From the IMG/VR virus record IMGVR_UViG_3300044695_005756, positions 1 through 64,000 of that record: a DNA stretch of 64,000 bases; one strand, given 5' to 3'. The notes below the pieces were generated by a model. That model searched no databases. It saw only the letters and a list, made by a program, of their open reading frames with translations, and was not told where the DNA came from. The DNA is from a virus. The position numbers and the translations under genes are program-made. Shown in pieces: positions 25,701 through 42,541 of this stretch. How positions within the stretch are numbered: position 1 is the first letter of the stretch; every line of letters starts with the position of its first letter.

Positions 25701-26800
25701 CCAGTTGCATTTTGTGAGATATAAGATGCGTTTGCGTGATCAAAAGATGCATTTGCTTTAATGAATGCCGAGTTGGCGTAAGAAGATGCGGAAGAACCAC
25801 CTAAATCGTCATAACCTACACCATCGTTTGTAAACTGCCATTTCTCTAGAGTTTCATTCCACAACAAGTAGACGTTAGACAAAGCGCCGCGATCAACTTC
25901 AATTCCTGCATCGGCAACTGGAATTGATGACTGATTGATTGCAGCATTTAATGTAATGATATTATCAGCAATTAATACAGTTGAAGTATTAACATATGTT
26001 GTATTACCTGTGACAGTAAGATTACCTGTAATACGAACATCACCTGTAACTGTACCGCCAACATTCGCACTCAGAGAATTGTTTGCTCTTAAAAATGCTG
26101 CATTGGCATATTCACCTGTTGCATTTTGACTTTGATATGCGGCATTTGCATGTACGAAAGCCGAGTTCGCGTATTGTCCAGTGGCATTTTGAGAAATGTA
26201 ACTAGAGTTGGCATGATTAAACGCGGCATTTGTTTTTATAAACGAACTATTTGCGTGAATAAAAGCAGCATTAGCGTCATGATACGCAGAGTTGGCTTGG
26301 TTAAATGCTGCATTAGCATATTGACCAGTTGCATTCTGTGATTGGTAAGCGGAGTTCGCATGTAAGAATGCAGCGTTTGTTTTAATAAATGCTGAGTTGG
26401 CATGAATAAAGCCAGCGTTAGCGTGAATGAATGCCGCGTTAGCTTGAGTGAATGCTGAGTTTGTATATTCACCAGTTGCATTTTGACTTAAAAATGCAGC
26501 GTTTGCTCTATCGAATGCAAGATTTACTTGTGCAAAACTAGAGTTTGCATGAATGAATGCAGCGTTAGCATATTGACCAGTCGCATTTTGTGAGATGTAA
26601 GATGCGTTCGCATGGTCAAATGCGGAATTAGTTTTAATGAACGCGGAGTTGGCATGTAAAAATGCGGCGTTCTGTGAAATGTAAGATGCGTTTGCATGAT
26701 CGAATGATGCGTTTGCTTTAATGAAAGCACCGTTTGCTTGTGCATATGCGGCTGTGACATTAGTGAGTGTGCTATTTGCCGCTTCAAACGCGCCATTCGA
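19748..26800 (-). repeat. 21-bp/7-aa coding repeat (ANxAFxH type) with 3 copies of module A and 2 of module B
   Basis: Module A (GDVRITGNLTV...DAGIEVDRG...WNET..KWQFTNDG) at ~25770-26090, ~24560-24870, ~21430-21740; module B (DLGFAGHYNDGTNAHSGLIRD) at ~22850-23280 and ~20310-20745. Confidence 0.9.
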
Positions 26801-26986
26801 ACGATCAAATGCGTAGATTGAACGTAGATACGATTCATATCCACCAATAGGTACTGCTCCTGTTCCAGCTGGAGTTCCTATGTATAACGTATTACTGCTG
26901 TATGAATAACCTGGTTCACCAACATTTAGTGAAGATGGCGCGTTTGTTACTAATGATCTTTTTATTTGAATAGGTGTATTTGCCAT
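19748..26986 (-). CDS. Giant segmented coiled-coil fibre protein (2412 aa)
   Basis: N-terminus IQIKRS..P..L..GE resembles the T4 gp37 N-terminus; long (A/T)N(A/S)(A/G/S)(F/Y)xx heptad runs interrupted by repeated beta-rich modules; C-terminal globular domain; occupies the wac position upstream of gp13. Confidence 0.8.
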   Translation of the reverse strand: MANTPIQIKRSLVTNAPSSLNVGEPGYSYSSNTLYIGTPAGTGAVPIGGYESYLRSIYAFDRSNGAFEAANSTLTNVTAAYAQANGAFIKANASFDHANASYISQNAAFLHANSAFIKTNSAFDHANASYISQNATGQYANAAFIHANSSFAQVNLAFDRANAAFLSQNATGEYTNSAFTQANAAFIHANAGFIHANSAFIKTNAAFLHANSAYQSQNATGQYANAAFNQANSAYHDANAAFIHANSSFIKTNAAFNHANSSYISQNATGQYANSAFVHANAAYQSQNATGEYANAAFLRANNSLSANVGGTVTGDVRITGNLTVTGNTTYVNTSTVLIADNIITLNAAINQSSIPVADAGIEVDRGALSNVYLLWNETLEKWQFTNDGVGYDDLGGSSASSYANSAFIKANASFDHANASYISQNATGQYANAAFIHANSGFIQANAGITHAQSAFIHANSAYQSQNATGNYANAAFTVANGAFIHANSGFHHANAAFANANGAYAAANAAYIQANSAFIQTNAAFDLANAAYLSQNATGQYANAAFTVANGAFIHANSSFIQTNAAFDLANAAYLSQNATGQYANAAFIHANSSYDHANAAFANANGAFAKSNAAYIHANSGFIHANSAYIQANATFANANGAFIAANSAGVYANGAFRQANSAFANANGAFAKSNAAYIQANSAFIKTNSAFLHANYAYIRANNALDANVGGTVTGDVRITGNLTVTGQTTYVNTSTVLIADNIITLNAAVNQSQTPISDAGVEVDRGALANVYLLWNETLDKWQFTNDGIGYDDLGATSASSYANSAFIKANASFDHANSGFIQANSAYHDANAAFIHANSAFIKTNSAFLHANYSFNHANSGFIQANSAYHDANAAFHHANSGFIQANSAYHDANAAFANANGAFAKANAAFANANGAFAAANAAYIHANSGFIQANSAYHDANAAFANANGAFAKANAAFANANGAFAAANAAYIHANSGFIQANSAYHDTNAAFLHANASFLHANSAFIKTNSSYDHANAAYISQNATGQYANAAFIHANSAFIKTNSAFLHTNYAFNHANSAFIKTNSAFDTANAAFIRANNSLDANVGGNVSASINVAGEFSVTGNITTESVTTVGGNGSITGANAIFSNYFFGSNGTVDLYVYTSYAFANANAAYAKANDGYHHANSAFIQANSAYHDANAAFIKTNSAFDHANSGFIQANSAYDHTNAAYISQNATGQYANAAFLRANNSIDANNGGTITGSLTVTNNLFVGNIFVTGQTFSINAGTLVSNDTVIVLGEGNYFADTRDLGFAGHYNDGTNAHSGLIRDATTKEWHLFKGYTPEIGENNNVDLNDPSFEIDTLHANLRSTFVTIKGIDLLPRTNIIFDLTNAAFIHANSGFIQTNSAFHHANYAFANANAAYAKANDAYHHANSGFIQANSAYHDTNAAFIHANSGFIKTNSAYDHANAAYLSQNATGHYANSAFYHANSGFIQANSAYHDANAAFANANGAFAKANAAFANANGAFAKSNAAYDHANSGFIQANASFDHANSGFIQANSAYHDTNAAFIHANSGFIKTNSSFDHANSGFIQANSSYDHANAAFANANGAFAAANAAFANANGAFAAANAAYIHANSGFIQANASFDHANSGFIQANSSFLHANYAFNHANSAYQSQNATGQYANAAFIHANSGFDHANAAYISQNATGQYANAAFTLANGAFIHANSGFIQTNASFDHANSAYQSQNATGQYANAAFIRANNALDANNGGTVTGDVRITGNLTVTGQTTYVNTSTILIADNIITLNAAIDQSSAPTVDAGIEVDRGSSANVYLLWNETLDRWQFTNDGTNYDDLGGSAASSYANSAFIKANASFDHANAAYQSQNATGQYANSAFVHANSAYQSQNSTGEYANAAFIHANSGFIKTNSAYDHANAAFIWANTLSAGSVDQYSRDHANSGFIQANAAFIHVNSGFIQANASFDHANAAFVFANTIAAGSIDQYARNQSNSGFIQANSAYDHANAAFNSANNVAPQVQPAFNTANAAFIHANSGFIQSNSAYDHANAAFNSANNVAPQVQPAFNTANAAFIRANNSIDANNGGTITGSLTVTNNLFVGNLVVTGQTFSVNATTLVANDTVIVLGAGNYISDLKDLGFAGHYNDGTNAHSGLIRDSVTKEWYLFKGYTPEVGENNNIDITDPSFVIDTLNANLHSTYVLTKGIDLLVRTNTIFDSTNASFLHANAAFIRANNSLDANNGGTVTAKVTVSSTDGLVVENATTQDSITIKGRSGGTSSYSATIVPDTLTASRTITIPDQSFTMGFRNIPAVGQKTSQYTLEVTDVGEFVEIGTGGSIIIPNNVFAAGDAISIFNNTGASVTITCSITTAYIAGFNLDVSSVSLATRGVATILFVSPTVCVIMGSVS
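20746..20971. repeat. Near-perfect tandem duplication, 126-bp period
   Basis: 20746-20845 vs 20872-20971 (encodes AYDHANAAFNSANNVAPQVQPAFNTANAAFI twice). Confidence 0.85.
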
Positions 26987-27725: not shown

Positions 27726-27992
27726 TTAAATACCTCTTGCGAAAACTACAGTATCTTTATCAATAAAGACTGCATTGATTAAACCTCGTGGTGGAAACTC
27801 AATGAAGTTCATCTTTTTAGCAAATCCAGAACGATATGTGTTTGGAACATCACATTGAATTGTTCCAAACTTGTCGCTGTTATTAAAAAGAATAAGAACA
27901 TCACCTTCAGAAAACTCATTTTCTTCAACAAGAACCAAGTCTTGATCCACGATGTTTATCAATTTATTTACATGTTCTTTTTTCAAAATCAT
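27726..27992 (-). CDS. Stand-alone copy of the fibre C-terminal domain
   Basis: FSEGDVLILFNNSDKFGTIQCDVPNTYRSGF...RGLINAVF aligns with FAAGDAISIFNNTGASVTITCSITTAYIAGF...RGVATILF at the end of the 2412-aa fibre. Confidence 0.65.
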   Translation of the reverse strand: MILKKEHVNKLINIVDQDLVLVEENEFSEGDVLILFNNSDKFGTIQCDVPNTYRSGFAKKMNFIEFPPRGLINAVFIDKDTVVFARGI

Positions 27993-28426
27993 GATTTAGG
28001 ATACTTTTCTTTAATTGAACGAATTTTATTTGTCATGGCAGTCATATCATCACCACCTTTCCAAATCGCATCCAACTGTTCAGCTATTGGTGGATACTCA
28101 TTTTTTCGTTTTACATAATAATCAGGAATCTCAGGTCGAACAATTTCCGATTTACTTATGTCCGCAACGGTAACTTGCCGAGACATTGGATTAGTAATTT
28201 CTCTCGTCTTTGGAGACAAATTATTCCATTCAGTTTCTTTTCTATCTATCTCAGCACATATTGCAGCTTCTTTTGATTGTATGAAACTTGTCAAATCTGT
28301 ATCTAAATTTGATGGAATAAAAATAGCCCAATCATAGACTTCTCCGTTGTGTTCTACTGTAAGTTGTGCTAATAATCGATCATCGTTGGAACCAGCAGGT
28401 CCCAAGCCAGTTATCGCAACACTCAT
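27989..28426 (-). CDS. Putative tail-fibre assembly/chaperone-like protein
   Basis: C-terminal Y..KR..EYPPI.EQLD.IW......I..IKEKYPK motif common in phage fibre clusters. Confidence 0.55.
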   Translation of the reverse strand: MSVAITGLGPAGSNDDRLLAQLTVEHNGEVYDWAIFIPSNLDTDLTSFIQSKEAAICAEIDRKETEWNNLSPKTREITNPMSRQVTVADISKSEIVRPEIPDYYVKRKNEYPPIAEQLDAIWKGGDDMTAMTNKIRSIKEKYPKS

Positions 28427-29794: not shown

Positions 29795-32700
29795 TTAAAG
29801 ATTACCATTAAAATATGCTGCTGTAACAATTCCTAAAGGAACTTCCGCTCCTGTTGAAATTTTTTGTCCTACTTCTGCATTATACGGAACGAAATGAATT
29901 TCACCATTTGGCATAAGAACACCTCCTCCATGAGCTACAAATGAATTAGTATACACTAAAGAGTATGTAGACACAATACCTGAAGCGGATATTTTTTGAC
30001 CTACAATTGCGCTGCCTGGAACAAAGTGTACGTCACCATTTGGCGCAAGAACTGCACCTTCATAATTAAATTGATTACCGTATTTTACAGGCGTGGTATA
30101 TTGTTGATTTTTAACGATAAAGACTCTTCCTAAGCCATCCGAGTATTGAAATACTAAATGTCCATCCGCGTCTATTGTAGCATTTTTACCTTGAGGATTA
30201 AAAGTACCAAAAAAAGGACCTGTATTGTAATATTCAGTAAAAAATCCATTTGGAAACATTCTTGATGGAAGAGGAGCTAAATGAGGAATAAAATAAATTG
30301 ATCCATCAGGAAGTAAAACGCTTCCCCAATTCGTGCCTCCCGTGTAATTTGTGTTTATGAGTGAATATGTTGAAACTACACCTGTTCTTGATATTTTTTG
30401 TCCAACAAGGGCTTGAAATGCAGCAAAATGAATTTCGCCATTTGGAGCAAGAGTACCTCCAATATAAGCTGATGTAGTGGTATATGCTAATGCATACGTT
30501 GATACAACTCCGCTAGCGGATACTTTTTGCCCTCTTACAGCGTTATAAGGAACAAAATGAATGTCGCCGTTTGGTGCAAGAACACCACCAGAATAAAGAT
30601 TGGGATTCGCTGCTGATGTTGTGTAAACTAATGCATATGTCGATGCAACACCATCAGCAGATATTTTTTGTCCTCTGTTTGCATTATACGGAACAAAATG
30701 AAGTTCACCATTTTGTGAAAGAACTCCACCATAATATCCAAACGAAGTAGTATATGCCAATGCATACGTTGATATTATGCCATTCACGCCGTTATTATTA
30801 AACAATGAACCTCGATCAACATTTCTTTGCAGAGTTCTGTTTAAACTTATCTCAGCTTGCTCGGAAAGGTATTGTTCTATCGATGGATTAACAAGATCAG
30901 CATAATAAGTAGTCCCATTTGCAGCTGGATAAGATGCGGTAGTATCAGTAGAAACTAAAGTACCAGGTAAAGATTTTGGTAATATTGTAGCAGTTAAAGC
31001 TTTTTTCGCTTTTGTGAAAACTGTTTGTCGTGATATGAGTTCGTATTTTCCAATTCCTAACGAATAACCAACGGGAACAAGTGATTGAGGATAAATTGAA
31101 CTGGCATATGGAATAACATTTGAAGTGTCTGAAGAATCATGCGCTCGTCTTATAAGGACATTTGGTTTATTGACCAGCTTCATCCCATATCGCTGAGTAG
31201 TTTGTTGAATAAAATACACATCTCCAGATTCGGAAAGAACGCCTCCTTGATGAATACGCTGCAATATCGGATACGTTGATATTACACCAGCGGATGATAT
31301 TTTTTGACCGACTTGTGCGGAATCTGGAACAAAATGAACATCGCCTCGACTATCAAGAACACCACCACGGTATGCACCACTTCCAGAGGTAATTACTAAT
31401 GAATACGTCGATACTACACCAGCGGATGATAATTTTTGTCCTCTGTTGGCAAAATAAGGAACAAAATGAGTGTCACCATTTGGTGCAAGAACACCACCCC
31501 AATAAGACGCACCAGCGGTATACACTAATGAATATGTCGATGTAACACCATCAGCAGATATTTTTTGTCCAACTCTTGCACTATAAGGAACAAAGTGTAC
31601 GTCACCGTTTGGCGCAAGAACACCACCTTGATAAGCAGTAGCAGTTGTGTATACCAACGAATATGTTGAAACATAAATGGGCACACTTTCGTTAGTTAAT
31701 AATTTCTGGCCTCTATTTGCATTGAAAGGCACAAACTGAACATCTCCACTAACATCAAGAACACCACCAGCATATGCAGCGGCTGTTGTGTACGCTAATG
31801 AATATGTTTGTACGATTCCATCGGAAAATATTTTTTGTCCTACTCTTGCAGAATCTGGAACAAAATGAATACTGCCATTACCGTCAAGAACACCGCCATC
31901 ATATGCAGCGGTTGTTGTGTACGCTAATGAATATGTTGTAGGATATTGAGATAAAAATTTATTGAACTCTATAACTTGTCCAACTTCTGCTTCATATGGA
32001 GCAAGATAAAAGGTGTTGCCTGTACTATCCATGGCACCACCAAGGTATGGCTGATTGGAAGCTGTGTATGCTAATGCGTATGTTGATACAACACCATCAG
32101 AAGAAACTTTTTGTCCTACTTTTGCATTATAAGGTGCAAAATGTATATCTCCATTATATGCTTTTCCGCCATAAGCATATGCACTAGAAGTTGTGTATAC
32201 TAATGAATATGTAGACACGACACCAGCAGAAGAAACTTTTTGCCCTCTGTTTGCAAGGAGTGGCACAAAATGTATATCTCCGTTGTTATCAAGAACACCA
32301 CCCGAATATGCAGCAGTAGTAGTATACACCAATGAATATGTTGATACAACACCAGCAGAAGAAACTTTTTGCCCTCTGATCGCACTATAAGGAACAAAAT
32401 GAACATCGCCGTTACTATCAAGAACACCACCTCGATAAGCACCAGAAATCGTATATACCAACGAATATGTTGATATGATACCAGCGGATGATATTTTTTG
32501 TCCTCTTGTGGCAGAAAAAGGCACGAAATGAATGTCGCCATTGTTATCAAGAACACCACCATTGTATGCGGAACCAGCGGTTAATACTAATGAGTATGTC
32601 GATACGACACCAGCAGAAGAAACTTTTTGTCCAACTCTTGCACTAAAATTTACAAAATGAATATCACCATTGTTATCTAAAACGCCACCTTCATACGCAT

Positions 32701-34150
32701 TAGTAACTGTATGAACCAATGAAAATGTTGATACTACGCCAGCAGACGATATTTTTTGTCCTCTGTTAGCATCATTGGGTATAAAATACACATCACCATT
32801 ATTATCAAGAACGCCTCCAGCATATGCACCACCAGACGTTGTATATACTAATGAGTAAGTTGTAGGATAGTGTTCAAGTGTGACATCAAATTGTAACTTT
32901 TGTCCTACTCTTGCACTAAAAGGTACAAAATGTGCTTCGTTATTGTTATTTAAAACACCGCCATCATATGCAGCAGAAGCGGTAGTATATGCTAATGCAT
33001 ATGTTGACACAACTCCTGACGATGAAATTTTTTGCCCTCTAGCGGCACTAAGCGGAATAAAATGTACATCGCCATTCGGTGCAAGAATACCGCCAGCGTA
33101 TGCAGTAATAGATGTGTATACTAATGAATACGTCGATACTACACCAGCAGATGATAGTTTTTGTCCTATATCCGCATTATAAGGAACAAAATGTATATCA
33201 TCGTTATTATCTAAAATACCTCCTTTATACTTCGCAAGAGCGGTACTGTTTACTAAAGAGTATGTTGTTATAACACCAGCAGACGATATTTTTTGTCCTA
33301 TGACAGCATTAAAGGGCACAAAATGAATATCGTTATTACTATCTAAAACACCACCGTTATATGCATTAGTAGCTGTATACACCAATGAAAATGTTGACAC
33401 GACACCAGCAGACGATATTGTTAGTCCTCTATTTGCATTATAATTTACAAAATAAATGTCGTTATTATTTGCAAGAACACCACCAGAATATGCACCAGCA
33501 GTTGTATATACTAACGAATACGTTGATGGAACTTGAGGTGCGAATCCATTTGGAGTTACTTTTTGTCCTCTGTTTGAATTATATGGCACAAAATATACAT
33601 CGCCATTCGGTGCAAGAACACCACCAGAATATCCAAAATTAGACGTTGTGAATATTAATGAGTAAGTTGTTATAACACCAGCAGATGATATCATTTGTCC
33701 TCTAGTGGCATTCCGAGGCACAAAATGTATATTACCAAGAGCGTCTAGAACTGCTGCACTCCAAAAATTAGCTCCAGATACTGAATAAGGATAAGTAAAT
33801 ACTGTACCATCTGTTGTTATTCTTATTCCTCTATCACCATCTACATTTACAATATGAATTTCATTATTGCTGGTGCGAACTGCTCCCGCAAGCTCACTAA
33901 CAGAGACAGAGGCTGTGCGGAGTGCATCATTATATGAATGAAGAACTTGAGGATAATCTACAAGAGTTGCTGTACCTACTTCCCATTTATCACCATCGAC
34001 AATTGAATAGTCAAACTCATCACCCATTGAATAGGTTGCAGCAGAAATTTTTTCGACATTGGCCGAACTCAATCTTATATTGGGTTCGAACGCATCTTCA
34101 CGCTGTGAAAAAGTACCTGTTTGTGATCTATCTTTTACTTGGCGTGCCAT
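29795..34150 (-). CDS. Beta-propeller repeat virion/adhesin protein, 28 blades
   Basis: ~43-aa repeat STYSLVYTxxxAYxGGVLxxNGDVHFVPxxAxxGQKISSAGVV, 21 + 7 copies. Confidence 0.75.
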   Translation of the reverse strand: MARQVKDRSQTGTFSQREDAFEPNIRLSSANVEKISAATYSMGDEFDYSIVDGDKWEVGTATLVDYPQVLHSYNDALRTASVSVSELAGAVRTSNNEIHIVNVDGDRGIRITTDGTVFTYPYSVSGANFWSAAVLDALGNIHFVPRNATRGQMISSAGVITTYSLIFTTSNFGYSGGVLAPNGDVYFVPYNSNRGQKVTPNGFAPQVPSTYSLVYTTAGAYSGGVLANNNDIYFVNYNANRGLTISSAGVVSTFSLVYTATNAYNGGVLDSNNDIHFVPFNAVIGQKISSAGVITTYSLVNSTALAKYKGGILDNNDDIHFVPYNADIGQKLSSAGVVSTYSLVYTSITAYAGGILAPNGDVHFIPLSAARGQKISSSGVVSTYALAYTTASAAYDGGVLNNNNEAHFVPFSARVGQKLQFDVTLEHYPTTYSLVYTTSGGAYAGGVLDNNGDVYFIPNDANRGQKISSAGVVSTFSLVHTVTNAYEGGVLDNNGDIHFVNFSARVGQKVSSAGVVSTYSLVLTAGSAYNGGVLDNNGDIHFVPFSATRGQKISSAGIISTYSLVYTISGAYRGGVLDSNGDVHFVPYSAIRGQKVSSAGVVSTYSLVYTTTAAYSGGVLDNNGDIHFVPLLANRGQKVSSAGVVSTYSLVYTTSSAYAYGGKAYNGDIHFAPYNAKVGQKVSSDGVVSTYALAYTASNQPYLGGAMDSTGNTFYLAPYEAEVGQVIEFNKFLSQYPTTYSLAYTTTAAYDGGVLDGNGSIHFVPDSARVGQKIFSDGIVQTYSLAYTTAAAYAGGVLDVSGDVQFVPFNANRGQKLLTNESVPIYVSTYSLVYTTATAYQGGVLAPNGDVHFVPYSARVGQKISADGVTSTYSLVYTAGASYWGGVLAPNGDTHFVPYFANRGQKLSSAGVVSTYSLVITSGSGAYRGGVLDSRGDVHFVPDSAQVGQKISSAGVISTYPILQRIHQGGVLSESGDVYFIQQTTQRYGMKLVNKPNVLIRRAHDSSDTSNVIPYASSIYPQSLVPVGYSLGIGKYELISRQTVFTKAKKALTATILPKSLPGTLVSTDTTASYPAANGTTYYADLVNPSIEQYLSEQAEISLNRTLQRNVDRGSLFNNNGVNGIISTYALAYTTSFGYYGGVLSQNGELHFVPYNANRGQKISADGVASTYALVYTTSAANPNLYSGGVLAPNGDIHFVPYNAVRGQKVSASGVVSTYALAYTTTSAYIGGTLAPNGEIHFAAFQALVGQKISRTGVVSTYSLINTNYTGGTNWGSVLLPDGSIYFIPHLAPLPSRMFPNGFFTEYYNTGPFFGTFNPQGKNATIDADGHLVFQYSDGLGRVFIVKNQQYTTPVKYGNQFNYEGAVLAPNGDVHFVPGSAIVGQKISASGIVSTYSLVYTNSFVAHGGGVLMPNGEIHFVPYNAEVGQKISTGAEVPLGIVTAAYFNGNL

Positions 34151-34153
34151 GTC

Positions 34154-37100
34154 TTATAACTTATTGAAAAATGGACTGAGAACAATTTCTGTATCCAATG
34201 GTCGACTAAATGTGTATAGTTTGTACTGAGTTGCATCATTACGAATCGCAATTATGTTTCCATCAAAATCTAAATTTGCTCCAATACAAAGTGGTGTTCC
34301 AGAAATCAAAGGTGATGTGATTAACGATTGTATGCCAGAAGGCGTAATTTTTAAAATACCTGATGTTCCATTATAAGGAACAAAGTATATGTTTCCTGCT
34401 GGATCTAAAACACCACTTTGAAAAGCACCAGCAGTTGTGTATACTAATGAATATGTAGACACAACACCAGCAGCAGAAACTTTTTGCCCTATAGTTGCAG
34501 AATGAGGCACAAAATGCACATCGCCATTTGGTGCAAGAACACCACCAACGTAAGCATCGGCAGCAGTATATACTAAAGAGTATGTAGACACAATACCTGA
34601 AGCGGATATTTTTTGACCTACGATTGCGTTGCCTGGTACAAAATGCACATCGCCATTTGGTGCAAGAACACCACCAGCATATGTATCAGCAGCAGTATAT
34701 ACTAATGAATATGTTGATACAACACCAGCAGCAGAAACTTTTTGTCCGACTATCGCGTTGCGTGGAACAAAGTGAATATCACCATTTGATGCAAAGATGC
34801 CACCAATATATGCTAAAGATGTTGTGTAAACTAATGCATATGTCGATACAACACCAGCAGCAGATATTTTTTGCCCTACTGTTGCGTTACACGGAACGAA
34901 ATGAACATCACCATTCGATGCAAGAACACCACCAGCATATGCATAATTAGCCGTTGTGTACACCAATGCATATGTTGATACTGCACCGTATTGAGATATT
35001 TTTTGACCTCTGTTAGCACTATCTGGAACAAAATGAATATCACCATTAAGTGCAAGAACACCACCCCAGTATGCACTAGCAGTTGTGTATACTAATGAAA
35101 ATGTAGACACTACAGGATTTTTAAATGTTGTTCCTGCCGTAATACTCTTCATCCACGCTCTTTGAAGTCCTCTCCAAGAAGTCAACGTGGAATTAATTGA
35201 TGAATCATCTCCTGTTGGAACAGCGCCTTGCACAACACTTGAAGGTAACGGTATGAATACGTCTTTTATTCCTGATGAAAAATTCACTTTGTCTGGAACA
35301 TTGGCAGTTACATTAGATGATGAAATGACTAAATCTCTACTCAATGTTGAAGCAAGTCTTTGTCCAACTGTTGATCCAAAAGGAACAAAATGTAATTCAC
35401 CTTGTTTATCAATAACACCACCGTTATATGCTAAACTGCCAGTCGAAGTAAGTGGATAAGTTGATACGACACCAGCAAGAGATATTTTTTGTCCAATTCC
35501 AGAATCGTAAGGAATAAAATGAACTTCTCCATCGCGTGTTTGAATACCGCCACGATAGGCAGTACTGCCTGTATTTACCAATGAATACGTTGATACAACA
35601 CCGTATTGAGATATTTTTTGTCCGACTGTCGCACTACTTGGCACAAAATGCACATCGCCGTTTCGTGCAAGGACACCACCGTCATATGCGCCAACAGTCG
35701 TATACACAAGTGAATAAGTTGATACGACACCAGCAAGAGATATTTTTTGTCCTCTGATAGCGTTATTTGGTATAAAATGTACATCACCGTTTGGCGCAAG
35801 AACACCACCAGCGTATGCACCAGCTGCGGTAGTATATACTAATGAATATGTTGATACTACACCAGCTGATGATAATTTTTGCCCCCTATTACCGACAAAA
35901 GGAACAAAATGAACATCGCCGTTACTATCAAGAACACCACCTCGATAAGCAGTAGCAGTTGTGTATACCAACGAATATGTTGAAGAAAATATTGAGAAAA
36001 ATTTGTTAAACTCCGCTACTTGTCCTACTGTAGCAGAAGAAGGAACAAATTGTAATTTATTTTGGCCGTCTAGAACACCACCATTGTAATGTCCAGGTGA
36101 AGTTCGTACTAATGTATATGTCGATACAACGCCAGCAGATGATATTTTCTGTCCTCTTGTAACACCATTTTGCACAAAATGTACATCGCCTCGACTATCA
36201 AGGACACCACCACGATATGCACCACCTCCAGAAGTAATTACTAATGAATATGTTGATACTACACCAGCGGATGATAATTTTTGTCCTACTCTTGCTTCAT
36301 AGTTTACAAAATGTATATCACCTCGACTATCAAGAACACCGCCGGAAAAAGAGCGAACTGTGGTATACACCAATGAATATGTTGATACTACACCAGCAGA
36401 AGATACTTTTTGTCCTCTGTTTGCACTAAAAGGAATAAAATGAACGTCACCATTTCTGTCTAATACTCCACCAGAATATGCAAAAGATGCCGTATATACT
36501 AATGGGTATGTATAAGTGCCAAACTGATCCAACTTTAGTCCTACTCTTGCATTATAAGGAACAAAATAAATGTTTCCATTGCCATCATAAACACCTCCAT
36601 CATAAGCACCGCCAACAGTATATGCTAAATCATAAGTTGATGCGACACCAAGGTAATTCACTTTTTGTCCTATGTCGGCATTATAAGGAACAAAATGAGT
36701 ATCGCCTAAAAAAAGTCCATCAAATACTCCTCCAGAATATGCATTCAAAGTGGTGTACACCAAATCATAAGTTGATACAACACCAGCAGATGATATCATC
36801 TGTCCTACAGACGCATTAAAAGGAGCGAAATGAATATCCTTTCTATCATTCAAAGCACCACCTTGATACGCTAAAGACACGGTGTAAACTAAAGGATATG
36901 TGCTAGAATAAACTTCGGGCGTGATATCGAACTGTAACTTTTGTCCTATACCAACACTATAAGGAATAAAATGCATTTCACCAAGACGATTTACTACACC
37001 CTCAAAATATGCACTATCAGCGGTATGCGCCAATGAGTATGTTGATACAACGCCGTATTGAGATATTTTTTGACCGACTTCCGCACTATAAGGAACAAAA

Positions 37101-37381
37101 TGAACGTCAGCATTTCCTGAAATAGTTGGCGCAAGAACACCGCCTGCATAACCATTTCCAGTTGTGTACACTAATGAATATGTTACAGGAACTTGATACA
37201 TTGATACTGTTCCTATTCCAACCTCAAAAGCATTTCGATCTTCGATTGTGTAATAAGTTTGATTATTATGACATACGTTCGCAAATGATTGATAACCTGA
37301 AACTGCGTAATCAAGTGTTACGTTTCCTGTTCCAGTTGTATTTGTTGTGACGAACGCTCTATCTAAAGCAACAAAAGCCAT
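34154..37381 (-). CDS. Beta-propeller repeat virion/adhesin protein, 21 blades
   Basis: Same repeat, 14 + 7 copies; N-terminus DR...T.TTGTG..TL..AV.G.QSF...YYTI....EVGIGT. Confidence 0.75.
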   Translation of the reverse strand: MAFVALDRAFVTTNTTGTGNVTLDYAVSGYQSFANVCHNNQTYYTIEDRNAFEVGIGTVSMYQVPVTYSLVYTTGNGYAGGVLAPTISGNADVHFVPYSAEVGQKISQYGVVSTYSLAHTADSAYFEGVVNRLGEMHFIPYSVGIGQKLQFDITPEVYSSTYPLVYTVSLAYQGGALNDRKDIHFAPFNASVGQMISSAGVVSTYDLVYTTLNAYSGGVFDGLFLGDTHFVPYNADIGQKVNYLGVASTYDLAYTVGGAYDGGVYDGNGNIYFVPYNARVGLKLDQFGTYTYPLVYTASFAYSGGVLDRNGDVHFIPFSANRGQKVSSAGVVSTYSLVYTTVRSFSGGVLDSRGDIHFVNYEARVGQKLSSAGVVSTYSLVITSGGGAYRGGVLDSRGDVHFVQNGVTRGQKISSAGVVSTYTLVRTSPGHYNGGVLDGQNKLQFVPSSATVGQVAEFNKFFSIFSSTYSLVYTTATAYRGGVLDSNGDVHFVPFVGNRGQKLSSAGVVSTYSLVYTTAAGAYAGGVLAPNGDVHFIPNNAIRGQKISLAGVVSTYSLVYTTVGAYDGGVLARNGDVHFVPSSATVGQKISQYGVVSTYSLVNTGSTAYRGGIQTRDGEVHFIPYDSGIGQKISLAGVVSTYPLTSTGSLAYNGGVIDKQGELHFVPFGSTVGQRLASTLSRDLVISSSNVTANVPDKVNFSSGIKDVFIPLPSSVVQGAVPTGDDSSINSTLTSWRGLQRAWMKSITAGTTFKNPVVSTFSLVYTTASAYWGGVLALNGDIHFVPDSANRGQKISQYGAVSTYALVYTTANYAYAGGVLASNGDVHFVPCNATVGQKISAAGVVSTYALVYTTSLAYIGGIFASNGDIHFVPRNAIVGQKVSAAGVVSTYSLVYTAADTYAGGVLAPNGDVHFVPGNAIVGQKISASGIVSTYSLVYTAADAYVGGVLAPNGDVHFVPHSATIGQKVSAAGVVSTYSLVYTTAGAFQSGVLDPAGNIYFVPYNGTSGILKITPSGIQSLITSPLISGTPLCIGANLDFDGNIIAIRNDATQYKLYTFSRPLDTEIVLSPFFNKL

Positions 37382-37390
37382 AATTTTTCT

Positions 37391-39817
37391 TTAAAGTTTG
37401 TTTAAAAATGGACTAAGACAAGCATTTACAGGCAAAGGATTAACCGAAAGCGTTGCAATTTTTTGTCCTACTACACCAGAAAAAGGTGCGAAGTATATAT
37501 CACCGTTTGGCATAAGCGCACCACCGATATACGCACTTGCAACAACATACGGCAATGAGTATGTAGACACAACTCCAGAAGTGGATATTTTTTGACCTCT
37601 GTTGGCAGCAAATGGTATAAAATGTACATCACCGTTTGGCGCAAGAACACCACCAGCATATGCAGTAGCGACAGTATAAACAAGTGGATATGTCGATACA
37701 GCGCCATCAGCAGATATTTTTTGTCCTCTGTTTGCTGAATGAGGCACAAAATTTATGTCGCCATTAACTGCAAGAACACCACCAAGATACGCAGCAGCAA
37801 TACTGTACACTAATGAATATGTAGACACGACACCAGCGGCAGAAATTTTTTGTCCTCTGTTTGCATTAAATGGCACAAAGTGTACGTCACCGTTTGGCGC
37901 AAGAACACCACCAGCATATGCGGTAGTGGCTGTGTATATCAACGAATAAGTCGATACGACACCAGATGACGATATCATTTGTCCTCTGTTAGCTGAGTAA
38001 GGTACAAAATGTATGTCGCCGTTCGGAGAAACAACGCCTCCAACGTAAGCATCGGCAGCAGTATATACTAAGGAGTATGTTGACACAACGCCTGAAGCAT
38101 TTATTTTTTGACCTCTGTTAGCACTTCGCGGCACAAAATGTACATCACCGTTTGGTGCAAGAATACCGCCATAATACGCATTAGCGACTGTATGTAATAA
38201 AACATAAGTGGATGGAATACCCAACTTCGAAAGTTTTTGTCCTCTTACAGCGGAATGTGGCACAAAGTGTGTGTCACCATTTGGTGCAAGAATTGCTCCA
38301 GCATATCCAGAAGCAACAGTATATGGTAATGTAAATGTTGATGCGATACCAGCAGTATTCGCATTATCGTATGCATTTCCACCTAAAGCACTCTGTTCCA
38401 ATAAACCTCTAAATGGTTTCCATCCTGATAAATTAGAATCGATTTCATTATTATCAAATGTTGGTACTCCACCGACAGCAATCGAATTTGGATATACGAG
38501 TGAAATGTTTGCCGATGTAGTTAGATTGCTAGGCGATAGATAAATTGCTTGTCCGTTGTTCGATGAATCGAAAATTTTATCTCTTGTAATCGCATTTACT
38601 AAAACTCTTTGTGCTGCCGTAGCACTATGATTTGCAAATATAATTCCAATGTCATTGTTTGATGACAACGCTCCACCAAATAAACCAGCGGTTGATGTTA
38701 CTGCTAATGAATATGTGGTAAATATACCTAAACTTTGATCATATACAGTACCTACTCTTGCGCTATACGGAACAAAGTGAACATTACCATTTCTGTCCAA
38801 TACTCCGCCGGCATATGCATTTGTTGTTGTATAAGGTAATGGATATGTGGAACTTGAGACTAACGCAAGCATAACTGACGCATTATATGGAATACAATAT
38901 ACTTCACCAGGATAATTAGCAGAGAATGATCTCACTACGCCACCAATATATGCACCCGCTGTTGTGTACGGAAGACCATAAGTGGTTGCAATAAAATTGG
39001 CCATGTATTGCCCTACTTGTGCATTGAATGGAACAAAGTAGTTTCCGCCATTAACAGTATATCCACCTTGATATGCGCCTGCAGTAGTATATGCTAACGC
39101 CCAAGTTGATGCAATTGTATTAGTAGTGTCAATTGTTTGTCCTACCGCTGCGTTATACGGAACAAAATGAATATAGTAAGGATATGTGACTGTATCGACA
39201 ATTCCACCAGAATATGCACCAGCAACTGTGTATGCTAAAGAGTATGTTGACACAATACCTGCCGATGATACTTTTTGTCCTCTGTTGGCATTATAAGGAA
39301 TAAAATGTACTTCATTATCCCCACCAAGAACACCGCCCTGATATGCACCAGCAACTGTGTATGTTAATGGATATGTTGATACAACACCTGCCGATGATAC
39401 TTTTTGTCCTCTTGTGGCAGAAAAAGGCACGAAATGAATGTCGCCATTAGCGTCACGAACTGCTCCAGAATACGCTGTAGTTGCGGTTGCGGTAACGGCA
39501 AATGTTGAAACTATTGGAGATTTTCCGCGGTATGTTGCTTTTCCTATTTCCCATTCACCATTTTTAGGCTCAAGAGAATAATAAAACTCACTATTAAGAC
39601 TTCCCGAATAATCATTATCTACAAAAGCAAAATTTTTATATCCTGCAATCGTATAAGGTTTATACCCACTATAAGCTGGAATTCGTTCGTTATCGGTAAA
39701 GTTAGAAAAGTTTAAACCATCAGGATTTACTGGAGATGGTGTGTTCGCAAGAACCAGTGTTGAATTGCCACCAGAAAAAGTATTTCCACGTGTTCTACTA
39801 TTAAAAATTATCGTCAT
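37391..39817 (-). CDS. Beta-propeller repeat virion/adhesin protein, 14 blades
   Basis: Same repeat, 7 + 7 copies; ends LSPFLNKL like the paralog's LSPFFNKL. Confidence 0.75.
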   Translation of the reverse strand: MTIIFNSRTRGNTFSGGNSTLVLANTPSPVNPDGLNFSNFTDNERIPAYSGYKPYTIAGYKNFAFVDNDYSGSLNSEFYYSLEPKNGEWEIGKATYRGKSPIVSTFAVTATATTAYSGAVRDANGDIHFVPFSATRGQKVSSAGVVSTYPLTYTVAGAYQGGVLGGDNEVHFIPYNANRGQKVSSAGIVSTYSLAYTVAGAYSGGIVDTVTYPYYIHFVPYNAAVGQTIDTTNTIASTWALAYTTAGAYQGGYTVNGGNYFVPFNAQVGQYMANFIATTYGLPYTTAGAYIGGVVRSFSANYPGEVYCIPYNASVMLALVSSSTYPLPYTTTNAYAGGVLDRNGNVHFVPYSARVGTVYDQSLGIFTTYSLAVTSTAGLFGGALSSNNDIGIIFANHSATAAQRVLVNAITRDKIFDSSNNGQAIYLSPSNLTTSANISLVYPNSIAVGGVPTFDNNEIDSNLSGWKPFRGLLEQSALGGNAYDNANTAGIASTFTLPYTVASGYAGAILAPNGDTHFVPHSAVRGQKLSKLGIPSTYVLLHTVANAYYGGILAPNGDVHFVPRSANRGQKINASGVVSTYSLVYTAADAYVGGVVSPNGDIHFVPYSANRGQMISSSGVVSTYSLIYTATTAYAGGVLAPNGDVHFVPFNANRGQKISAAGVVSTYSLVYSIAAAYLGGVLAVNGDINFVPHSANRGQKISADGAVSTYPLVYTVATAYAGGVLAPNGDVHFIPFAANRGQKISTSGVVSTYSLPYVVASAYIGGALMPNGDIYFAPFSGVVGQKIATLSVNPLPVNACLSPFLNKL

Positions 39818-39826
39818 GTTATTTTA

Positions 39827-41179
39827 TCACGCTACTATTGGCTGAGTGGGTTCTACATTTCCAATTATAATACAACTTGTAGAACTAGTAAATATTACTG
39901 TTGCAATTCCTCTAGGAGAAAGAGGCGTATATGGAATATCATAATCATGTCCAGCCACAAATGCATTTGTAATGCTACATGTTATTATAACATCAGCACT
40001 TGTGTTATTGATGATTGTGATGACATCTCCATCCGCAAAAACTCCATTAGGAATAATAACTGATCCGCCTTCTTTTATACTTATATACTTTCCTATATCG
40101 GTTAAAGCTAATGTATACTCTGAAGTTTTTTGTCCATTGAATGGTATATTTCTGAAGCCTACTGTAAAATCTTCGTCTGGAAAAGTTGCTGTTCTAGATG
40201 CAGTCAAAGTTTTTGGAGTTAGTGTCATGGTATATCCACCAGGTGCTGTTGAACCTCGAAGTGATATACTGTCATACCCAACTGCTCGTTGTACTTTTAG
40301 TCCGTTTGGATGTCTTATGGTAACAGCACCCGTAACTATTCCACCATTGTTAGCGTCTAATGAGTTATTCGCACGAATAAATCCAGAATTCGCATGATTA
40401 AATGCTGCATTTGTATGAATGTAAGCAGAATTCGCTTGAATGAATCCTGAATTCGCGTGAGCAAAAGCCGCATTGATTTGATCAAAACTTGAATTTGCGT
40501 GATCAAATGAAGAGTTAGTTTTTATGAATCCGCTGTTTGCATGATTAAATGCATAATTTGCGTGTAGATATGCGCTATTTGCTTGTATAAATCCAGAGTT
40601 GGCATGAATGAATGCTGCATTTGCTTGTATGAATCCAGAATTGGCATGAATAAATGACGCATTCGTATCATGATAAGCAGAATTTGCTTGAATGAAACCT
40701 GAATTTGCGTGATCAAACGCCGCATTTGTTTTTATGAATCCACTATTTGCGTGATTAAATCCAGAATTTATGTGGATGTAAGCGGAGTTTGCTTGAATGA
40801 ATCCACTATTTGCATGACTGAATGCCGGGTTAATTCTTTCAGCAAGTTGTAAAACATTTGCGCCTTTTTGATATAGTTCATTGGCGTAAACGTAAATGCT
40901 TGAGATATTTCTACCGACTGTTAAGTCGAGCTGAATGGTTACATTGCTTTTATCAAAGTTCGTGTTTGCAATATTACCAGTATTTGCACGAAGTGTATTA
41001 ATGTTCGCGTGATTACGAACATTTAATGATGAGCCTGCTCCCTGAATAAAAATGGCAGAATTGGCAATGAAACCACCACTCGTATTACTTGTTAAGTTAT
41101 TAGCGACTTCAATTAGAGAAGAGGTCGCTGATAACCATTCAGTAAAGTTATTAGAAGTTGAAAGTTGATTTATTGCCAT
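39827..41179 (-). CDS. Short heptad-repeat fibre protein
   Basis: N-terminal NNFTEWL..T..LI.VANNL, ANSGFIQ heptads, shared C-terminal domain (GFRNIP..GQKTS.YTL). Confidence 0.75.
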   Translation of the reverse strand: MAINQLSTSNNFTEWLSATSSLIEVANNLTSNTSGGFIANSAIFIQGAGSSLNVRNHANINTLRANTGNIANTNFDKSNVTIQLDLTVGRNISSIYVYANELYQKGANVLQLAERINPAFSHANSGFIQANSAYIHINSGFNHANSGFIKTNAAFDHANSGFIQANSAYHDTNASFIHANSGFIQANAAFIHANSGFIQANSAYLHANYAFNHANSGFIKTNSSFDHANSSFDQINAAFAHANSGFIQANSAYIHTNAAFNHANSGFIRANNSLDANNGGIVTGAVTIRHPNGLKVQRAVGYDSISLRGSTAPGGYTMTLTPKTLTASRTATFPDEDFTVGFRNIPFNGQKTSEYTLALTDIGKYISIKEGGSVIIPNGVFADGDVITIINNTSADVIITCSITNAFVAGHDYDIPYTPLSPRGIATVIFTSSTSCIIIGNVEPTQPIVA

Positions 41180-41194
41180 TTTTTTATAAACTTG

Positions 41195-42541
41195 TTATGT
41201 GATACCTGATGTTATGCAATAATTGGGCTCAAGGAACATTACTGTCGCAACTCCTTTTGGCAAAATATTTGCTGATGTGATGATCGTATCTTTGCCAGCT
41301 TTATATGCAGTAACTCCATAAGTGAGACCCACATTCGCTGAAGAGTTGTTTACGATAATTACCACATCGCCGTTCGAAAACGGTTGAGTTGAGTAATTTG
41401 GAATATTTATATAAGTTTGTCCAAACCCTGGAGCATTGTCAGAAACTTCAATAAATTTACCAATTTCAGTCGGATTAATTGTAGCATTCTGATCGGCTAA
41501 TGTTCGGGATATAGGCACATTTCTGAAGCCTACTTCAAAAGTTGAATCTGGAAATTCTACGGTTTTGTCAACCGTAAGAATGCCTCCACTCGTTAAAAGA
41601 AAATCATATGAAGCAGATCCGCCTGATCTACCTTTAAGTTCTATGGAATCTTCTAATACACCGTTTTGAGATTTAACACCATCAACAGCCAGAATTGTTA
41701 CAGCACCCGTAACTGTTCCGCCATTGTTAGCGTCTAATGAATTATTAGCACGAATGAATACAGAATTCGAACGATTAAAAGTTGCATTAGCGTGATCAAA
41801 CGCTGAGTTTGTTTGAATAAATCCACTGTTCGCGTTATTAAAAGCAGGCGCCATGTGAATCAAAGCATGTTCTACTGGTACATTCGCTACATTTATTTTA
41901 ATAAACTGCGAATTCGCGTGAATAAATCCACTGTTTACATGATCGAACGCAGCATTAATTTGTATAAAATCGCTGTTCGCATGATAGAATGCAGAATTTG
42001 TTTGAATGAATCCACTATTTGCGTGATTAAATGCATAATTTGTATGCAAATAAACAGAATTCGCTTGTATGAATCCAGAGTTGGCGTGAATAAACGATAC
42101 GTTTGTTTGGTTAAATTCAGCATTTGCATGAATGAATGCTGAATTGGCGTGAATATATAATGAATTTGATTGTACGAATTGTGAATTTGCCTGATTAAAT
42201 GCTGCGTTAGGCTCAACCAATATTCCAATAACATAAAAATTTTCACTATGTCCTTCGTCGGTAGATAAATTTCTTCCTACCGTTAAATCTAATGCTATTG
42301 ATACGTTCGATCCATCAATATTGGTATTTGCAATATTACCAGTATTTGCGCGAAGTGTATTAATATTCGCTAAAGTGCGAACATTAAGAGAAGAGTTTGC
42401 ACCTTCAATAAAAATAGAACTATTCGCTAAAAATCCACCGTTAGTGTTGTCGGTAAGATTGTTAGCGACCGCAATTAAAGAAGATGTTGTCAGCAACCAC
42501 TCTTCAAAAGTGTTTGCTGACGAGACTTGATCTATTTTCAC
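41195..42541 (-). CDS. Short heptad-repeat fibre protein, tandem paralog of 39827-41179 (GTG start)
   Basis: N-terminal ~95 aa highly similar to neighbour; degenerate heptads; divergent C-terminal domain (GFRNVP). Confidence 0.75.
   Translation of the reverse strand: MKIDQVSSANTFEEWLLTTSSLIAVANNLTDNTNGGFLANSSIFIEGANSSLNVRTLANINTLRANTGNIANTNIDGSNVSIALDLTVGRNLSTDEGHSENFYVIGILVEPNAAFNQANSQFVQSNSLYIHANSAFIHANAEFNQTNVSFIHANSGFIQANSVYLHTNYAFNHANSGFIQTNSAFYHANSDFIQINAAFDHVNSGFIHANSQFIKINVANVPVEHALIHMAPAFNNANSGFIQTNSAFDHANATFNRSNSVFIRANNSLDANNGGTVTGAVTILAVDGVKSQNGVLEDSIELKGRSGGSASYDFLLTSGGILTVDKTVEFPDSTFEVGFRNVPISRTLADQNATINPTEIGKFIEVSDNAPGFGQTYINIPNYSTQPFSNGDVVIIVNNSSANVGLTYGVTAYKAGKDTIITSANILPKGVATVMFLEPNYCITSGIT

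Follow-up and report, generated by a model that had tools for sequence, protein, structure and literature searches.

Several seven-bladed propellers can share one polypeptide chain: in Aip1 and in the 14-repeat WD40 protein of Protein Data Bank (PDB) entry 2ymu, both tandem architectures, as well as in the triple propellers of DDB1/CPSF160, the rings succeed one another along the chain. A five-bladed propeller forms the glycan-binding part of Gp45, the attachment protein of staphylococcal phage phi11. Growth by insertion has been described elsewhere, namely in the evolved Dit and Tal proteins of lactococcal and streptococcal siphophages, tail proteins into which carbohydrate-binding modules are inserted (PMC7533335, PMC10688798), and in the Si3 region of the cyanobacterial RNA polymerase beta' subunit, where one domain type was inserted recursively (PMC10895346, PMC13114784). 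Here, we analyzed a 64,000-nucleotide stretch of viral DNA (positions 1 to 64,000 of IMG/VR record IMGVR_UViG_3300044695_005756; hereafter the window) in which three adjacent genes, P0001, P0002 and P0003, encode proteins composed largely of propeller blades. With a probability of roughly 0.65, we take their products to be three paralogous virion attachment (receptor-binding) proteins, encoded in the tail-fiber region of an uncultured marine T4-like myovirus—with a virion location, glycan binding, a nested topology and an oligomeric state that we infer.

The closest described fold is that of virginiamycin B (streptogramin B) lyase, Vgb (PF24684; PDB 2z2n, 2z2o, 2z2p and 2qc5), with which the phage propellers share seven blades and a recognizable relatedness in sequence. 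Whereas Vgb is a cytoplasmic enzyme of one domain and one active site, here the module is repeated in a phage fiber protein; unlike Vgb, the phage rings consist of seven near-identical blades with variable loops on one face, and evidence of a lyase site is absent. As in Aip1, 2ymu and DDB1/CPSF160, there are several seven-bladed rings per chain, and 2ymu and DDB1 appear among the Foldseek matches of the whole P0002 model. The non-canonical links of P0002 and P0003, however, lie only at 2|9 and 3|8|15|17 (numbers of the preceding blade units), which fits out-and-back nesting and not tandem succession. Phi11 Gp45 differs in fold family, blade number, phage type and architecture, and has neither nesting nor a triplet of paralogs.

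Evolved Dit and Tal resemble the present locus in that a binding module sits in a loop of a tail-device protein, at a site that is empty or differently filled in related phages, and in the proposed role, extra adhesion to host glycans. They differ in that the host domain here is a tail-fiber anchor from a T4-like myovirus, exceeded in size 2- to 6.5-fold by its insert, and in that entire propellers are inserted, themselves apparently hosts to further ones. Si3 offers the same A1-B1-C-B2-A2 pattern over several levels, an appendage grown by recursion; its units are small sandwich-barrel hybrid motifs seen by cryo-electron microscopy, whereas ours would be closed rings of 300 residues, nested at two levels in addition to that of the anchor, as read from sequence. 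Insert size is reported to stay consistently below host size (PMC13114784), a trend to which the propeller arms, larger than their host anchor, run contrary. The Vgb-lyase fold family, binding modules inserted in phage tail proteins and recursive self-insertion (Si3) are already known; our search of the open-access literature returned no description of propellers nested in propellers, nor of a heterotrimeric fiber made of paralogs.

Three propeller genes in a tail-fiber region

The source contig, of which the window is a part, is a 94.5-kb IMG/VR record with an estimated completeness of 51% and all genes on the minus strand. Encoded on it are the core structural proteins expected of a T4-like myovirus (major capsid, scaffold, portal, sheath, terminase and baseplate wedge), and its major capsid protein reaches its best identity, 64%, with cyanomyoviruses such as P-TIM40 and P-RSM6. 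The three propeller genes are tightly packed, with gaps of 9 and 3 nt. In transcription order they are preceded by gp6-like, gp7-like and other wedge genes, a DUF4815 giant and two short fibers, and followed by a glycosyltransferase-methyltransferase (GT-MT) fusion, a 2412-residue fiber, three putative neck-region genes (316, 302 and 333 residues; kept in related loci), the terminase and the sheath. This is the position of T4-like tail-fiber and baseplate accessory genes—between the baseplate-wedge and the neck/terminase genes, amid fiber genes—with heptad-repeat fibers encoded on both sides, and the neighborhood recurs in related contigs.

An anchor domain interrupted by propeller arms

The repeat unit of all three proteins is a 43-residue blade of the Vgb-lyase type (DNA period 129 nt), and each protein exceeds the gathering threshold of PF24684 (Vgb_lyase; 50 bits, scores in Table 1). 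A blade hidden Markov model (HMM) detected 14, 20 and 27 units in P0001, P0002 and P0003, respectively. To these are added a degenerate 21st blade of P0002 (residues 1009–1060), present in its AlphaFold2 (AF2) model, and a degenerate blade in the C-terminal ring of P0003 (~1293–1351), whose first unit is partial, giving a total of 28. The first-pass annotation of this DNA had counted 14, 21 and 28 blades, all multiples of seven, and had arranged them as one C-terminal seven-blade ring plus an inserted arm of one, two or three rings. The units and the split anchor matches described below bear out both statements, and the C-terminal tails quoted there (...LSPFLNKL, ...LSPFFNKL and ...AAYFNGNL) are indeed those of P0001, P0002 and P0003. 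For the fold itself, residues 754–1065 of the P0002 model, preceded by a helix at 734–748, superimposed on Vgb lyase (2z2o/2qc5; VIA) with Z 35 and a root-mean-square deviation of 2.2–2.5 Å over 293–298 of 299 residues, and P0001 matched Vgb lyase chains 2qc5/2z2n in phmmer (E 1e-13). Closure of seven blades by the N-terminal strand was established for the C-terminal ring of P0002 only, the other rings being assigned by repeat homology.

Single-propeller homologs of ~460 residues begin with a contiguous domain of ~140 residues (consensus 'M..V.KDRV.VT.TTTGTG..TLG....GYQ.F..IG.GNQTYY.I.DG..WEVGIGTYT.SGTTLSRD.VL.SSN...'), which we call the anchor. Contiguous in these relatives, it is interrupted at one point in the window proteins, the A1-B-A2 pattern of a domain insertion, with 7, 14 and 21 extra blades between its halves in P0001, P0002 and P0003. 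MAFFT aligned the 460-residue homologs to residues 1–58 plus 677–1075 of P0002, and the anchor HMM likewise matched that protein in two pieces (residues 1–76 and 678–755). On P0001 it gave a weak N-half and a C-half at residues 409–488; on P0003 both matches were weak (Table 1). The P0002 model places strands 52–65 and 674–688 in a hairpin from which the arm emerges: the outgoing strand has a predicted local distance difference test (pLDDT) score of 86–87 up to residue 60, falling thereafter, and the last C strand of the arm is continuous with the return strand 674–688. In other homologs the same hairpin holds a ConA/LamG-type domain of ~210 residues, an insert of ~420 residues or 7 blades, and in many proteins with different inserts the anchor HMM splits at positions ~60–65. 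This hairpin is a general socket, a natural site for extra receptor-binding modules.

The anchor had no match in Pfam or the PDB. With tblastn, matches fell on a small protein adjoining the tail-tube and tail-fiber genes in Methylophilales phage Venkman and, in Roseobacter phage CRP-6, within a putative tail-fiber protein. In an exhaustive profile search, 22,814 representative clusters matched (16,227 of them at E 1e-10), nearly always within residues 1–100 of proteins of 120–1281 residues. Five of ten sampled anchor proteins end in Peptidase_S74, an intramolecular chaperone of tail fibers and spikes whose class is trimeric. The ESM Atlas yielded weak viral and tail-fiber leads, and a cluster look-up for the matches returned no names. 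From annotation and context, we infer a generic virion-docking N-terminal domain of tail fibers. The search thereby defines a very widespread unnamed domain (>16,000 clusters at E 1e-10) without a Pfam model.

Seams within the arms

The C-to-D links of the two longer arms were compared with the 912 links of 152 stand-alone rings (from loci L011–L084). In the latter, 879 links had no extra residue, 32 had one extra and one was a residue short, so that none of the 912 exceeded +1. The arms do contain links with exactly four extra residues: two in P0002, following units 2 and 9, four in P0003, following units 3, 8, 15 and 17, and none elsewhere. The inner seams carry motifs common to both proteins—QKLQFD(I/V)T.E.Y on entry, GQV.EFNKF on exit—that bound a block of exactly 314 residues in each. 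Read from these seams, P0002 would be 2+[7]+5 and P0003 3+[5+[7]+2]+4, a parse we hold to be probable; every ring then has seven blades, with its D strand first and its C strand last, like a stand-alone domain. The nesting points of the first-pass annotation (after blade 2 in one protein, after blades 3 and 5 in the other) coincide with exact +4 links; that they are true nesting seams is deduced from the sequence rather than from a structure.

Two further properties of the blades bear on this parse. In the stand-alone rings (n=152), the histidine of the 'IHFVP' motif is present in 86–92% of blades 1–6 and in 34% of blade 7. The blades that nesting makes the last of a ring (units 15, 17 and 21 of P0003, unit 9 of P0002) lack it, while those that tandem succession makes the last (units 7 and 14) keep it. 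We also scored every non-crossing partition of the arms into rings of seven by blade-index-specific log-odds. For P0002, the seam-derived parse scored -223.8 and came out first of seven, with the tandem parse fifth (-294.1); for P0003, the seam-derived parse was third of 70 and the tandem one 37th, and the ring of units 9–15 was present in three of the four best parses.

The strongest competing explanation, credible if somewhat unlikely, is that the arms are plain tandem propellers (units 1–7, 8–14 and 15–21) in the same proteins with the same role, joined by ordinary inter-blade links. An N-terminal D strand would then close the last ring, and the +4 loops would be contacts between neighboring rings and not chain crossings. 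Identical repeats in a run are able to form tandem double propellers with no special linker between them, and 2ymu is among the Foldseek matches. Several observations weigh against our main reading. A spacing of seven units between seams—or of 14—is equally expected of tandem rings in which successive rings bear a +4 loop at the equivalent blade. The blade-index method put the true layout first in five of seven distinct 7+7 controls, wrongly parsed one 7+7 control as 2+[7]+5, and broke down on P0004 and P0007, which are divergent tandem proteins. No confident nested model came from AF2: in P0002 (59-row alignment), the anchor, units 10–14 (pLDDT mostly 85–91, with blocks of 74–82 from ~residue 640) and the C-terminal ring were well modeled, but pLDDT fell below 50 at units 1–2, unit 9 and both seams, and the VIA and Foldseek listings for the model cover the C-terminal ring only. 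The single-sequence AF2 model of the P0003 arm (residues 50–1010; pLDDT 55), with unrealistic strands of 14–17 residues, was rejected as an artifact. The anchor of P0003 is barely detectable by the anchor HMM. Finally, blade identities show no colinear orthology between P0002 and P0003, within either protein or against the single-ring ortholog L012-b, which counts for neither layout.

The ring boundaries speak against tandem rings. Every unambiguous boundary in the family has a long link, +8 to +14 residues in P0004, P0006 and P0007 and 76–129 residues before the C-terminal rings, yet the would-be boundaries between units 7 and 8 and between units 14 and 15 of P0002 and P0003 are perfectly canonical. 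Tandem rings would also have to carry a +4 loop found in none of the 912 single-ring links, end in blades that retain the histidine contrary to the family rule, and accept the low parse ranks given above. The QFD/EFNKF pair would fall on blade 2 in P0002 and on blade 1 in P0003, and unit identity within either protein has no offset-7 periodicity, the blades being homogenized. On this evidence, rings spliced into other rings are the probable architecture of the P0002 and P0003 arms. If so, closed rings of 300 residues can enter a two-stranded hairpin of another such ring time and again with their fold kept, an economical recipe for enlarging multivalent binding surfaces that would be of interest to protein design.

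Two lines of analysis were dropped: nesting-consistent MAFFT alignments, which laid single rings across a seam (units 6–8 plus 10–13) or misaligned the paralogous arm, and whole-ring HMM parse scoring, which was replaced by the blade-index log-odds because repeats obtain inflated scores under local multi-domain scoring. A scan of IMG/VR with the entry-seam motif found no match; with the exit-seam motif, it found only the close relative described below (L061/L088) and three unrelated loci. The exit motif EFNKF(F/L) (P0002 455–463, P0003 728–736) resembles the tail of stand-alone propellers, (F/L)(L/F)NK(L/F), a likeness that hints at an inner ring that was once a terminal domain with a tail. 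Separately, blade 7 of stand-alone rings has tyrosine at the 'IHFVP' histidine position in 46% of cases against histidine in 34%, and this Tyr/His signature may be usable as a ring-end marker in this propeller family.

Homologs and the conserved triplet

Homologs have 7 blades in 111 cases, 14 in 6 and 20–21 in 4. They keep multiples of seven, one of the checks suggested with the first-pass annotation, as is to be expected of a seven-bladed fold. Across 74 related viral loci, anchor-propeller genes usually stand three in a row, each with a single ring, and 41 of the 45 complete, non-duplicate loci have exactly three propeller genes. Positions within the triplet correspond to orthologous groups a, b and c: the tree has 5 label changes, whereas shuffled labels would lead one to expect 40. 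P0003 belongs to group c and P0001 to group a; P0002 joins P0001 in group a, both on long branches that leave the placement unsure. The triplet itself is ancient and conserved, and a conserved three-gene propeller set is thereby defined in uncultured marine T4-like phages.

The grading of the arms fared differently. Almost every related locus reads 7/7/7, with 14/14/7 in the nearest multi-ring relative (L011/L012), so the expectation that homologs would keep a 1-2-3 series failed. Word-seeded searches of a 5.8-billion-protein set recovered no other anchor protein with an insert of at least 14 blades. A P0003-like protein occurs on only one other contig (L061/L088; IMGVR_UViG_3300020183_000446), as an open reading frame (ORF) truncated by the contig end that is 87% identical to P0003 residues 571–1451 and keeps both exit seams. 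We therefore read the series as lineage-specific modular growth and not as a conserved ruler; the designed ruler or lattice once proposed for these proteins finds no support. The contig in question belongs to a close relative of this phage, the ORF being followed by the same GT-MT gene and then by a 2113-residue fiber.

Propellers of this family also occur without the anchor. P0004, P0006 and P0007 (1345–1361 residues; metagenomic) carry 21 blades in simple tandem order starting at residue 6, lack the anchor and end in a different C-terminal domain of ~430 residues. Their long links lie after units 7 and 14 in P0004 and P0007 and after units 7 and 13 in P0006 (20 units detected). Read directly, all three ring-last blades of P0004 lack the conserved histidine. 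In L011/L012, a 1064-residue protein (L012 5462–8656) joins a heptad-fiber N-terminus of ~283 residues to two propellers with an 82-residue linker between them; the propeller module is thus also used on a fiber chassis without anchor.

Oligomeric state

One copy of each protein might assemble, by way of anchors and necks, into a 1:1:1 heterotrimeric fiber head with nine discs at graded distances, which we consider rather unlikely. Speaking for it are the exactly three adjacent genes in 41 of 45 complete related loci, the ancient position-specific orthologous groups, a neck helix with signatures specific to a, b and c, and the occurrence of the same anchor at the head of Peptidase_S74 fibers. 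These fibers are, however, encoded by single genes and would therefore be homotrimers, suggesting that the anchor can homo-oligomerize. The grading is not conserved, hence staggered distances cannot be a selected feature, and we know of no precedent for a heterotrimeric phage fiber of three paralogs. Three separate homotrimers explain the same data. Doubtful to a greater degree is the combination of a 1:1:1 heterotrimer with true recursive splicing of whole propellers into C-D hairpins, again with nine discs. Were it true, it would represent an evolvable plug-in scaffold, a 140-residue socket domain carrying up to 920 residues of nested rings.

Probable binding surfaces and proposed mode of attachment

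An alignment of 53 window units and 881 homolog units showed a near-invariant framework (STY, Y.GGVL, PNGD.HF.P, GQK) with entropy peaks in the D-to-A loop (positions 11–15 and 17) and the B-to-C loop (32–34 and 36). By propeller convention, these two loops form the top face and the C-to-D links the bottom face. A near-invariant framework with loops that vary in every blade suggests that the discs are probably multivalent lectin-like surfaces and, since the seams lie in bottom-face links, inserted rings would not obstruct the binding faces. At the DNA level, the units are only ~60–85% identical, which implies that the sameness of the blades at the protein level is kept by selection and not only by recent copying.

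We propose that the three proteins share a chassis of an anchor of ~140 residues that would dock on tail or baseplate, a short helical neck and a C-terminal propeller of the Vgb-lyase fold. The beta-hairpin of the anchor ('...WEVGIGT / TLSRD...') would act as the socket, empty or occupied by a lectin-like domain in relatives and by one, two or three propellers here, its two strands running on into those that open (D) and close (C) the inserted ring. Within the arm, the splicing would be repeated, a complete ring bounded by two +4 links entering the C-D hairpin of a host-ring blade. Each disc would offer a multivalent lectin-like surface for a host envelope glycan, and more discs would bring avidity or extra specificities. 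The propeller proteins are probably host-range determinants of abundant ocean phages.

That the propellers are instead enzymes (lyase, lactonase or depolymerase) degrading a host surface polymer rather than merely binding it seems very unlikely: Pfam Vgb_lyase matches, the source annotations of homologs ('streptogramin lyase', 'sugar lactone lactonase' (YvrE)) and the fact that phage tail spikes are often depolymerases would fit, but the blades share one motif at 55–85% mutual identity with variability in two loops, the pattern of multivalent lectin propellers, and their conserved 'IHFVP' histidine is tryptophan in Vgb. The phmmer alignment spans Vgb residues 22–248 and stops before the catalytic residues, which we take to lie in the last blades, outside the aligned part; catalysis is thus unsupported rather than excluded.

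Feature coordinates and neighboring genes

The propeller genes, their parts and the adjoining GT-MT gene are listed in Table 1.

Table 1 Propeller genes of the window, their predicted parts under the seam-derived parse, and the adjoining GT-MT gene.
Feature	Coordinates	Strand	Evidence and remarks
P0001, paralog 'a', 808 aa, 14 blades (2 propellers)	37391..39817	-	Blade HMM; PF24684 82.3 bits
P0001 anchor N-half, residues 1–100	39518..39817	-	Diverged, longer than usual; HMM positions 27–72 at residues 57–109
P0001 inserted arm, one seven-blade ring, residues 101–405	38603..39517	-	Units 1–7, between anchor halves
P0001 anchor C-half and helical neck, residues 406–489	38351..38602	-	HMM positions 65–140, 38 bits
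P0001 C-terminal seven-blade propeller	37394..38350	-	Units 8–14; tail ...CLSPFLNKL; phmmer to Vgb lyase
P0002, paralog 'b', 1075 aa, 21 blades (3 propellers)	34154..37381	-	Blade HMM, AF2; PF24684 65.9 bits
P0002 anchor N-half, residues 1–63	37193..37381	-	Ends in outgoing socket strand; HMM positions 1–76, 61 bits
P0002 putative outer ring, part 1, units 1–2, residues 64–151	36929..37192	-	Entry seam QKLQF/DITPEVY; +4 link after unit 2; parse 1/7
P0002 putative inner ring and both seams, units 3–9, residues 152–465, 314 aa	35987..36928	-	+4 links after units 2 and 9; last unit without His
P0002 putative outer ring, part 2, units 10–14, residues 466–678	35348..35986	-	AF2; C strand runs into anchor return strand
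P0002 anchor C-half and helical neck, residues 679–756	35114..35347	-	HMM positions 64–137, 58 bits; AF2 DSSP
P0002 C-terminal seven-blade propeller	34157..35113	-	Tail ...LSPFFNKL; VIA Z 35, residues 754–1065
P0003, paralog 'c', 1451 aa, 28 blades (4 propellers)	29795..34150	-	Blade HMM; PF24684 123.1 bits; groups with position-c orthologs
P0003 anchor N-half, residues 1–66	33953..34150	-	Strongly diverged; weak HMM match 39–63; motif DGDKWEVGTATL read directly
P0003 putative outermost ring, part 1, units 1–3, residues 67–199	33554..33952	-	+4 link after unit 3
P0003 putative middle ring, part 1, units 4–8, residues 200–421	32888..33553	-	+4 links after units 3 and 8
P0003 putative inner ring, units 9–15, residues 422–735, 314 aa	31946..32887	-	Seams QFDVTLEHY / EFNKFLSQ; +4 links after units 8 and 15
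P0003 putative middle ring, part 2, units 16–17, residues 736–817	31700..31945	-	+4 link after unit 17; unit 17 without blade His
P0003 putative outermost ring, part 2, units 18–21, residues 818–990	31181..31699	-	Unit 21 degenerate, blade-7-like
P0003 anchor C-half and long linker, residues 991–1123	30782..31180	-	Weak HMM match 1070–1122
P0003 C-terminal propeller, one degenerate blade	29798..30781	-	Units 22–27 plus degenerate 1293–1351; tail ...AAYFNGNL
Glycosyltransferase-methyltransferase fusion, 447 aa	28423..29766	-	Follows propeller triplet; PHROG and Pfam matches

A megablast search of the three-gene region against a phage collection returned no match, and tblastn with P0001 returned only distant propellers from Cylindrospermopsis and Streptococcus phages. 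As psbA (PF00124) was not found on the half-complete contig, it gives no clue to the host.

The GT-MT fusion is syntenic in all six related loci examined (L027, L024, L056, L074, L012 and L036) at 65–84% identity, and is better conserved there than the propellers. It is followed by a gene for a 145-residue protein (27989–28426, minus strand), which is found in five of the six loci, the exception being L012. The two gene products may modify the propeller proteins or share one cassette with them.

In the commonest long form of the homologs (~716 residues; P0014–P0125), the anchor is split at a second site, HMM position ~38, by an insert of ~255 residues whose type was not recognized—a second socket in the same small domain. 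The fibers that flank the propeller genes (39827–41179 and 41195–42541, ~450 residues each, and the 2412-residue fiber at 19748–26986) contain heptads of the 'HANSGFIQANSAF' type. They have a C-terminal domain in common, of which a free-standing version is encoded by an 88-residue gene at 27726–27992.

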